NCBI RefSeq assembly: GCF_003019035.1
Contig: NZ_CP027447.1
From: Escherichia coli
GTDB lineage: Bacteria; Pseudomonadota; Gammaproteobacteria; Enterobacterales; Enterobacteriaceae
DNA: 64,000 nt
Reading direction: 5' to 3' (one strand)
Both the position numbers and the translations under genes were made by a program. Positions 27,564 to 28,019 of this stretch are shown here, in pieces (the stretch's first letter is position 1; each line of letters starts with the position of its first letter). A model generated the notes under the pieces. It ran no database searches. It worked only from the letters and a program-made list of their open reading frames with translations, and was not told the DNA's origin.

Positions 27564-28019
27564 TTACGAAAACACCTGAATAAAAAAATAGATTACTGCA
27601 AAAATAAAAAAACAAATAAACGTCCAGCTCAAATTATAAAGGGCGCTATAGCTGTTATTAACAGAACGAGAGAGAAAAATGTCTTCTTTTTTTATATGTC
27701 TGGCGGAGATGTTGCGATACAGGCGGATATAATAAACACAATAGAGTAATAAAGGCGGTATTGCCCATCCACCTGTAGGTTTACCAAATATAAGCGTGAG
27801 TATAATGACGATAGCAATGAAAAGCAGAAAGACGATCTGTGCTTTAGATTCTATTTTTTTTAATTCGCTTCTGATGCCGTCAGCGTGCTGTTCTTGCCAG
27901 CGCCGCAGCGTGTTAACGCTAAATTGATAGTGTTCACAAAGCTCCTTATTAGATGCCCCCTCTTTTGACCGCTGTAAAATTTCAGCAATTTGCTTATCTG
28001 TGAAACGGGATTTAGCCAT
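27564..28019 (-). CDS. Hypothetical protein (151 aa): N-terminal HTH-like segment plus C-terminal hydrophobic segments
   Basis: ATG at 28019 preceded by a strong GGAGGG Shine-Dalgarno; AT-rich; N-terminus (FTDKQIAEILQRSKEGASNKELCEHYQFSVNTLRRW) resembles IS3-type transposase HTH; C-terminus has predicted TM helices. Confidence 0.5.
   Translation of the reverse strand: MAKSRFTDKQIAEILQRSKEGASNKELCEHYQFSVNTLRRWQEQHADGIRSELKKIESKAQIVFLLFIAIVIILTLIFGKPTGGWAIPPLLLYCVYYIRLYRNISARHIKKEDIFLSRSVNNSYSALYNLSWTFICFFIFAVIYFFIQVFS

Follow-up and report, generated by a model that had tools for sequence, protein, structure and literature searches.

Genomic setting of the ORF

We analysed a window of 64,000 nucleotides of Escherichia coli DNA, in which treR and mgtL/mgtA (24823–27519, + strand) are followed by pyrB, pyrI and ridA on the − strand. 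As the initial annotation had reported, an open reading frame (ORF) lies between mgtA and ridA; it is flanked by the stop codons of mgtA (27519, + strand) and ridA (28086, − strand), and its own stop codon is only 44 bp from that of mgtA. The features of the region are listed in Table 1. The product of the ORF is 100% identical to that of an annotated CDS in one of the genomes compared (L001). RefSeq/PGAP names this protein, WP_001130089.1, "transposase", and the label carries the GO term "DNA transposition".

The list of open reading frames places a TTG start at 28025, two codons upstream of the ATG at 28019. We prefer the ATG since it follows GGAGGG at a distance of 6 nt, is the RefSeq start for WP_001130089.1 and begins the N-terminal sequence MAK(A/S)RFT, which is common to nearly all of the relatives compared. 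A GGAG-containing Shine–Dalgarno sequence is present at the equivalent position in every orthologue examined. The strong Shine–Dalgarno sequence and ATG initially noted at this position are therefore upheld.

GC values are 0.345–0.41 over the ORF against about 0.50–0.54 in mgtA and ridA. Taken over the whole ORF, GC and GC3 are both 0.38, compared with 0.53 and 0.56, respectively, for ridA. We thus agree with the earlier remark that the composition is unlike that of the flanking core genes (38% against about 52% GC). Orthologues span GC values from 0.34 to 0.56 and GC3 values from 0.30 to 0.66, so the AT-richness is lineage-specific.

Table 1. Features of the mgtA–ORF–ridA region, in window coordinates
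Feature	Position	Strand	Remarks
Hairpin between the convergent mgtA and ORF stop codons	27533..27559	.	11-bp arms
ORF (CDS), 151 aa + stop	27564..28019	−	Predicted three-TM membrane module fused to an HTH_Tnp_1 domain; RefSeq WP_001130089.1 ("transposase")
Predicted TM helix 3, codons 132–150	27570..27626	−	C-terminus predicted outside
Basic loop, predicted cytoplasmic, codons 102–131	27627..27716	−	Invariant R102 and R118; conserved Y128-x-x-S-W
Predicted TM helix 2, codons 87–101	27717..27761	−	Moderately hydrophobic; conserved Y93-C94...Y97-I98 motif
Predicted TM helix 1, codons 62–79	27783..27836	−	AlphaFold2 model and hydropathy
Charged linker-helix stretch, codons 52–61	27837..27866	−	AlphaFold2 model and alignment
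IS3-OrfA-type helix–turn–helix, codons 2–51	27867..28016	−	Model helices 8–19, 24–31 and 35 onward; Pfam and alignment
Shine–Dalgarno sequence GGAGGG	28026..28031	−	6-nt spacer to the ATG at 28019
Hairpin, ridA 3' end	28043..28073	−	12-bp perfect stem AGATAATCCAGG/CCTGGATTATCT, 7-nt loop; arms 28043–28054 and 28062–28073
ridA	28086..28472	−	Same-strand upstream gene; probable co-transcription partner of the ORF
Promoter-like site TTGGTA-17-TATAAT	28510..28538	−	Upstream of ridA; 10/12, consensus match only; nearest candidate promoter

Selection on the reading frame

Substitution rates were estimated from five codon-aligned alleles or orthologues. Among the Escherichia sequences dN/dS is 0.17–0.24 at dS values of 0.23–0.37; against Salmonella, where dS is saturated, dN/dS is about 0.08. 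When the gene is split, ω is 0.03–0.22 for the helix–turn–helix (HTH) half and 0.09–0.49 for the transmembrane (TM) half, indicating that both are constrained. A full-length frame of 148–152 residues with an ATG start is found in 17 of the 19 genomes examined; the ORF of E. whittamii has 147 codons, with a shorter C-terminus, and that of Escherichia L026 is disrupted, which leaves 18 of the 19 with an intact frame. Several alleles carry frameshifts or truncations.

The rate of evolution of the ORF is about tenfold that of ridA (dN 0.31 versus 0.03 in the comparison with Salmonella). Its identity to the Salmonella and Citrobacter copies is 55%, compared with 94% for ridA and 90% for mgtA. The pattern of substitution indicates that the ORF is a genuine protein-coding gene maintained by selection.

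Distribution and gene order

The ORF is present in 440 of 5,426 complete E. coli genomes (8%), always once and on the chromosome; in the other 92% it is dispensable. Of the 442 matching genomes, 441 have it at one site only. Two deep alleles (dS 0.23) occur in E. coli, with 42 genomes matching the window at 99% identity or more and 397 at about 92%. K-12-type genomes have no ORF and carry a 205-bp spacer at the same location, in which the ridA-proximal hairpin is retained. We read the sequence of this spacer as replacing the ORF with two REP-type palindromic units.

The order pyrB–pyrI–ridA–X, where X is the ORF, is found in seven genera and is usually convergent with mgtA. The genera with pyrI–ridA–X are Escherichia, Salmonella, Citrobacter, Klebsiella (K. 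spallanzanii), Superficieibacter, Phytobacter and Kosakonia; within Escherichia, E. albertii and E. whittamii have the locus in addition to E. coli. The orthologue in Salmonella enterica, where the gene is widespread, has the locus tag STM4457 and shares 59% amino-acid identity with the ORF. This list of taxa is a lower bound, because the pattern scan of genome contigs on which it draws did not return Salmonella, which has the gene. In a Citrobacter cluster, whose members bear the names C. freundii or C. portucalensis, an inserted TRAP transporter separates the gene from mgtA. Two Escherichia genomes, L009 and L026, retain ridA–X though mgtA has been replaced or lost, and the stable linkage is therefore to ridA and not to mgtA.

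Two plasmid matches and three matches in the phage collection are chromosomal pieces that carry the same pyrBI–ridA–X–mgtA locus. One of the latter three is a Salmonella genome contig filed among the phages.

Gene order across these genera indicates that the ORF is ancestral at the ridA locus in enteric bacteria and vertically inherited, and that it has been lost from K-12 and most other E. coli. On the same comparison, the K-12-type arrangement, with repeat sequence in place of the ORF, is the derived state. Since the gene is ancestral at this locus, its low GC content is not the mark of a recent insertion.

Domain structure and topology

The first 50 residues had been likened to the HTH of IS3-family OrfA proteins, and the searches bear this out. 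Pfam HTH_Tnp_1 matches residues 2–51 with an E value of 1.4e-8, with weaker matches to HTH_23 and HTH_28, and the N-terminus is 39% identical over 46 residues to an IS3-family OrfA-type protein; proteins of this type are the closest found outside the family. Conservation within the family is highest in the HTH, where L27, C28, F33, S34, L38, R39, R40 and W41 are nearly invariant.

The remainder of the protein is the hydrophobic, aromatic-rich segment that was noted at the outset. The hydrophobic residues A, I, L, M, F, V, W, Y and C make up 66% of positions 62–151; F, Y and W account for 22% there, compared with 7% in the N-terminal part. Hydropathy peaks at residues 62–79, 87–101 and 132–150 mark three candidate TM helices. 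The linker, which starts near residue 45 (the invariant H45) and includes the invariant L53, joins the recognition helix to TM1. The loop between TM2 and TM3 is basic, with a family mean of 5.5 K+R against 2.2 D+E over residues 102–131. Motifs conserved in the family run through the whole length: L27-C28, F33-S34, L38-R39-R40-W41, H45, L53, Y97-I98, R102, S105, R118, Y128 and S131-W132.

An AlphaFold2 model built on a 19-sequence alignment has a pLDDT of 80.9 and a pTM of 0.69; it was used in place of a run on a six-sequence alignment, which was poor (pLDDT 60). Helices are predicted at residues 8–19, 24–31, 35–78, 80–105 (TM2), 111–118 (short) and 123–150 (TM3). In the model the HTH recognition helix, the charged linker and TM1 form one continuous helix, residues 35–78, and the membrane segment is a three-helix bundle.

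The topology prediction called for by the initial annotation gives three TM helices with the N-terminus inside and the C-terminus outside. The model suggests a seven-residue periplasmic turn and a cytoplasmic TM2–TM3 loop, an arrangement which fits the positive-inside rule. Because TM2 is only moderately hydrophobic, the three-helix topology rests on prediction. The predicted periplasmic exposure is confined to the seven-residue loop and a one-residue C-terminal tail, with no periplasmic domain. A sequence search of the PDB gave no match, and fold searches of the PDB gave nothing informative and no structural analogue.

Relatives of the protein

An exhaustive HMMER scan of 1.84 billion representative sequences returned only 16 clusters below 1e-10, all of them members of the family and mostly fragmentary; ordinary OrfA HTH proteins rank next. 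A Foldseek search of AFDB50 likewise lists the same family first (150–161 residues, all named "transposase"). The next matches are membrane proteins of 109–121 residues from Yersinia and Erwinia which lack the HTH, with TMt values of 0.70–0.77. An hhalign comparison of the ORF family with the Yersinia proteins (115–121 residues) gives a probability of 96.7% and an E value of 4e-10 over residues 42–136. These uncharacterized proteins (for example UniProt Q668T3; P0122 and P0219–P0221) share with the ORF H45, L53, FR-x-S after TM2 and W132. They differ from it in having no HTH and in their genomic contexts. The Y. pestis homologue directly follows type VI secretion (T6SS) genes (PAAR, ImpE and gp25-like), whereas that of Y. 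kristensenii does not adjoin such genes.

The profile alignment indicates that the linker helix and three-TM module of the ORF are homologous to the HTH-less Yersinia membrane proteins. In one of two readings, the ORF would join an IS3-OrfA-type HTH to a membrane module that is found elsewhere without it; in the other, the Yersinia proteins would be descendants that have lost the N-terminal part.

Divergent paralogues of the ORF sit alone in varied contexts. Those of Citrobacter youngae and Enterobacter sp. kpr-6 are downstream of an emrE-like SMR gene; others lie before an alpha-2-macroglobulin gene, convergent with an OYE-type reductase gene or in an unannotated Serratia region. A general functional tie to emrE-like SMR genes was weighed and rejected, because the other paralogues turned up in four contexts unrelated to it. 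Genomic association is uninformative about function, since the neighbours at the ancestral locus are merely inherited and the paralogues have varied surroundings.

Origin of the ORF

It had been suggested that the ORF might be spurious or else the remnant of an insertion element recruited as a small membrane protein. A spurious ORF within an AT-rich spacer would be short, AT-rich and absent from K-12, as this one is. The comparison with K-12 that was proposed as a check is uninformative, the gene being absent there. At the base composition of the ORF, a frame stays open over 151 codons with a probability of about 5e-5 per start position; given the conservation and the dN/dS results, the question of chance is irrelevant. 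Purifying selection, with dN/dS well below 1 at dS values up to saturation, a frame intact across genera and in 18 of 19 genomes, the conserved Shine–Dalgarno sequence and ATG, and the annotation as a CDS together exclude a spurious ORF, to which we give next to no credence.

The second suggestion, in the form of a decaying IS3-family element whose orfA pseudogene has a frameshifted hydrophobic read-out, draws on the HTH_Tnp_1 match, the weak NCBIfam matches to IS3 and IS481, the AT-rich composition and the "transposase" annotation itself. The NCBIfam transpos_IS3 score is, however, about 16 bits (16.1) against a cut-off of 160, and the matches in NCBIfam, PADLOC and PHROGs (IS3, IS481 and IS630 well below cut-off, DrmC, small terminase and transposase) are generic and at the level of the HTH, leaving the C-terminal part without a match. 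Pfam finds HTH families only, with no catalytic DDE (rve) or OrfB domain in the ORF, and with the mgtA stop so near there is no room for orfB or any second ORF. A repeat search of 27300–28300 found no inverted repeats bracketing the ORF; all it returned were two hairpins, both local, and short matches attributable to chance. Signs of mobility are absent: the gene is single copy, keeps a fixed locus across genera, and its plasmid and phage matches are chromosomal pieces. Synteny in seven genera, the conserved length, motifs that are conserved in the hydrophobic half as well, and purifying selection on a TM half that has independent homologues all tell against decay. We consider a remnant very improbable, and the idea is refuted by the synteny, the selection on the TM half and the absence of DDE/orfB and inverted repeats.

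The comparisons indicate that the ORF product is neither a transposase nor part of an insertion sequence or of its remnant, and the "transposase" label and GO term are artefacts of domain-level naming. What stands of the earlier suggestion is the recruitment, which is fair as a likely origin: a transposase-derived domain was probably taken into a small membrane protein. The local remnant does not stand.

Hairpins and expression

A strong hairpin follows the ridA stop codon in every genus, and the Shine–Dalgarno sequence of the ORF comes next. The two are no more than about 25 nt apart in Escherichia, Citrobacter, Klebsiella and Salmonella; genomes L021, L024 and L025 have a longer spacer. The short distance of about 25 nt leaves no room for a promoter of the ORF's own, and no promoter-like site was found between ridA and the ORF. 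Since the hairpin sits at the 3' end of ridA, ridA-derived transcripts that reach the ORF must cross it. On the − strand the stem is not followed by a U-run. We suggest that low-level translation of the ORF would come from ridA transcripts extending past this U-less hairpin, an arrangement that would put expression of the ORF below that of ridA. On the + strand a T-run follows the same stem, and here the hairpin could stop read-through transcripts from mgtA, which would be antisense to the ORF.

The hairpin at ridA, which is conserved in sequence (GATAATCCAG), was considered as an operator for the ORF protein and not adopted. The stems of Salmonella, Superficieibacter and Phytobacter massiliensis differ at the same position, as would suit a structural rather than a sequence-specific role. 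No operator-like conserved DNA site was identified, and Rfam gave nothing meaningful in 27300–28600.

Function

The explanation that we favour, with confidence a little above even, is that the ORF is a vertically inherited Enterobacteriaceae gene for a membrane-tethered DNA-binding protein, N-in/C-out with three TM helices, made by read-through from ridA. According to the model, the product would be a 151-residue inner-membrane protein with an IS3-OrfA-type three-helix HTH facing the cytoplasm. The recognition helix is predicted to run on as a single helix, via a 15-residue charged linker, into TM1, and this rigid helix would hold the HTH about 2–3 nm from the bilayer.

We infer that the HTH would still bind DNA, because it is the most conserved part of the protein, keeps the basic residues of the recognition helix and has to be cytoplasmic. 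Since the domain would be tethered directly to the inner membrane, any DNA binding must occur at the membrane, and the protein would act as a membrane-localized repressor or activator, or as a DNA–membrane tether. With no sensor domain, any signal would have to be sensed within the membrane or via abundance of the protein. Literature searches (STM4457, WP accessions, and HTH_Tnp_1 with transmembrane) found nothing on the gene, and the locus tags of the STM4457 region are absent from the supplements of Salmonella transcriptome papers.

Membrane-tethered HTH domains can be protein-binding, as in RodZ. With this precedent the HTH could be a protein-interaction or scaffold module and the product a small inner-membrane adaptor, perhaps acting on the MgtA P-type ATPase as MgtS, MgtR and MgtU do. 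The ORF encodes a membrane protein and is convergent with mgtA in most genomes, the model holds the HTH very close to the bilayer, and the HTH-less Yersinia homologues imply that the membrane module can function alone. The conserved linkage is nevertheless to ridA: the TRAP transporter comes between the gene and mgtA in Citrobacter, and L009 and L026 keep the gene after the loss of mgtA. The paralogues in unrelated contexts and the near invariance of the basic R39 and R40, as expected for DNA contact, also count against an adaptor, which we judge unlikely. We think it more doubtful still that the patchy distribution reflects an arms race and that the product is a conflict-related membrane protein resembling T6SS immunity, superinfection-exclusion or toxin proteins. 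The accessory status of the gene in E. coli, where 8% of genomes have it as two deep alleles, its fast evolution, the position of the Y. pestis homologue right after T6SS genes and the weak PADLOC DrmC match would suit such a role. The DrmC match is confined to the HTH, however, and beyond generic HTH hits no defence-system or phage family was matched. The gene lies not in an island but in a fixed core position by ridA across genera, with no conserved partner gene, and the Y. kristensenii homologue is not beside T6SS genes.

A more specific proposal is that a host-domesticated IS3 OrfA HTH at the inner membrane still recognizes the terminal repeats of IS3-family elements or a related motif and works as a chromosomal decoy or repressor, keeping IS ends or other target DNA sequestered at the membrane. 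We regard it as a long shot; if true, it would mean a host-encoded brake on IS3-family transposition or, in broader terms, a new class of DNA-binding regulator in Enterobacteriaceae, membrane-bound and polytopic but sensor-less.

For the membrane-tethered DNA-binding protein that we favour, genetic tests should be straightforward, given the natural presence/absence polymorphism in E. coli and the wide occurrence of the gene in S. enterica. If the HTH binds DNA, the protein would be a membrane-tethered regulator of an unusual kind and would illustrate cleanly how a transposase domain becomes domesticated; short of a demonstration that it binds DNA at the membrane, the ORF is of modest interest. 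The name matters in any case. The gene is annotated yet uncharacterized, a systematically misnamed domain fusion. On thousands of Escherichia, Salmonella and Citrobacter genomes the "transposase" label hides a conserved orphan gene, and it inflates mobile-element counts, because the protein has none of the features of a transposase.

Comparison with known systems

An IS-type HTH that runs into a three-TM bundle with no sensor domain found no counterpart in these searches among characterized families or solved structures. The closest relation in sequence is to the IS3-family OrfA proteins (HTH_Tnp_1, PF01527), small DNA-binding or regulatory proteins of IS3/IS407-type elements, which have the same HTH as the 50 N-terminal residues of the ORF. 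The two share the motif pattern RFT-EQI...L-Q...G...LC...FS..T...W, and the start of the post-HTH helix also aligns. Where OrfA continues into a leucine-zipper tail, the ORF has three predicted TM helices instead. Unlike orfA, the ORF lacks a downstream OrfB/DDE gene, a frameshift site and IS ends, and is a single-copy gene at a fixed locus.

The membrane-anchored one-component regulators ToxR, TcpP and CadC resemble the ORF product in that their N-terminal DNA-binding domain lies in the cytoplasm and is anchored directly in the inner membrane, DNA binding being a prediction for the ORF. An HTH (residues 2–51) followed by TM1 (residues 62–79) on one continuous predicted helix is a fusion of the ToxR/CadC type. 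ToxR, TcpP and CadC combine an OmpR-type winged helix with one TM helix and a sensor domain in the periplasm. The ORF differs on each count, with an IS-type three-helix HTH, three predicted TM helices and essentially no periplasmic residues; Pfam gave no Trans_reg_C match in the ORF that would point to an OmpR-type domain.

RodZ, which binds MreB, is likewise small and bitopic or polytopic, with an HTH at its cytoplasmic N-terminus adjoining a TM segment. Its HTH is of the Xre type, a different class, and the ORF has no periplasmic domain; no sequence or fold match between the two was found. The peptides MgtS, MgtR and MgtU, small membrane regulators of MgtA, MgtB and MgtC, are genetically linked to an mgt locus and consist of about 30 residues with a single TM segment, whereas the ORF has 151 residues with an HTH and three predicted TM helices. 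In contrast to theirs, the linkage of the ORF is to ridA and persists where mgtA has been lost or moved apart from the gene. The known kinds to which the ORF product belongs are thus the domesticated transposase HTH and the membrane-anchored HTH protein, and it is a variant of both.

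Hairpins around ridA and the start of the ORF

On the + strand the short segment between the ORF and ridA reads as an A-run, then the ridA-3' hairpin and then a T-run. In appearance the hairpin is closer to a terminator of transcripts arriving from mgtA than to one of ridA. Such transcripts would be antisense to the entire ORF, and induction of mgtA could thus yield antisense RNA across it.

We also observed a second, smaller hairpin that carries the Shine-Dalgarno GGAG of the ORF in its loop. Equivalents occur in three of the compared loci (L010, L018 and L022). The stem is UUCAACC/GGUUGAA in Escherichia, whereas in Citrobacter and Klebsiella it consists of GCC/GGC with extra pairs; the stem sequences are thus unlike although the layout is alike, and the shared layout could be due to chance. 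On the other side of ridA, the pyrI-ridA spacer contains a long hairpin that looks like the pyrBI terminator. Within the loop lies a TATAAT that provides the -10 element of the promoter-like site called upstream of ridA.

Coordinates of the features (window positions unless a locus, L, of a compared genome is named)
Feature	Location	Strand	Details
ridA-3' hairpin	28043-28079		A-run before and T-run after, on the + strand
Shine-Dalgarno-loop hairpin	28020-28040	-	
pyrI-ridA spacer hairpin	28480-28545	-	AAAAGTCTGGCTC ... GAGCCAGACTTTT, with T-runs
Low-GC long ORFs	32982-34646, 55204-56139, 62137-62721	+	GC 0.31-0.38
Low-GC long ORFs	57168-58013, 59296-60015, 62710-63831	-	GC 0.31-0.38
Region of SMR gene and family copy	L020:3393-4453		Citrobacter youngae
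Region of SMR gene and family copy	L027:3281-4447		Enterobacter sp. kpr-6
ORF-less mgtA-ridA spacer	L003:1612-1816		K-12 MC4100
Region of HTH-less homologue and T6SS genes	L029:467-3366		Yersinia pestis
Region of mgtA remnant and ORF	L009:3457-4137		Escherichia sp.
Region of mgtA remnant and ORF	L026:4001-4742		Escherichia sp.

The locus in other genomes

In E. coli genomes without the ORF (92%), the mgtA-ridA spacer measures about 205 bp. We aligned two such spacers, those of MC4100 and L004, to window 27520-28085. Both contain two palindromic units, which we read as REP/BIME-type from their sequence; of the hairpins in the window spacer only the ridA-proximal one is kept, and the deletion boundary lies directly after it.

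In two Escherichia sp. genomes mgtA is reduced to an N-terminal remnant of about 32 aa. In L009 the ORF is followed by nrdD. The ORF of L026 is disrupted; one match covers residues 1-89 and a second, overlapping one residues 74-151, with about 65 bp between the two, which suggests that there has been an internal duplication or insertion.

The chromosomal block tabA-bdcRA-yjgH-pyrLBI-ridA-X-mgtA-treRB, X being the ORF, occurs in two records filed as plasmids, NZ_AP023207.1 (pMTY18781-2, 93.8 kb) and CP061270.1 (1.2 Mb). Rather than true plasmid cargo, these records probably represent segments of the chromosome or replicons that were assigned wrongly.

Relatives and further AT-rich ORFs

In two genera a family copy that is not adjacent to ridA follows a same-strand emrE-like SMR efflux gene after a gap of 270-370 bp. 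This does not hold generally, since other paralogues (L030-L033) occupy four unrelated contexts. In Y. pestis the HTH-less protein homologous to the membrane module lies where a T6SS gene group (PAAR, ImpE) ends, beginning 25 nt past a gp25/TssE-like gene; that of Y. kristensenii (L015) has a context other than T6SS genes. Besides the ORF, the window holds six more long ORFs well below its average GC of 0.486; they have the appearance of AT-rich islands in other parts of it.

Divergence of E. coli alleles

Between the two E. coli alleles (window 27564-28472 and L002) dS is 0.23 for the ORF and 0.11 for the adjacent ridA. We have the impression that such values are high for comparisons within this species. 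They would then point to either old balanced alleles or introgression at the ORF-ridA locus, with other Escherichia clades as the source.
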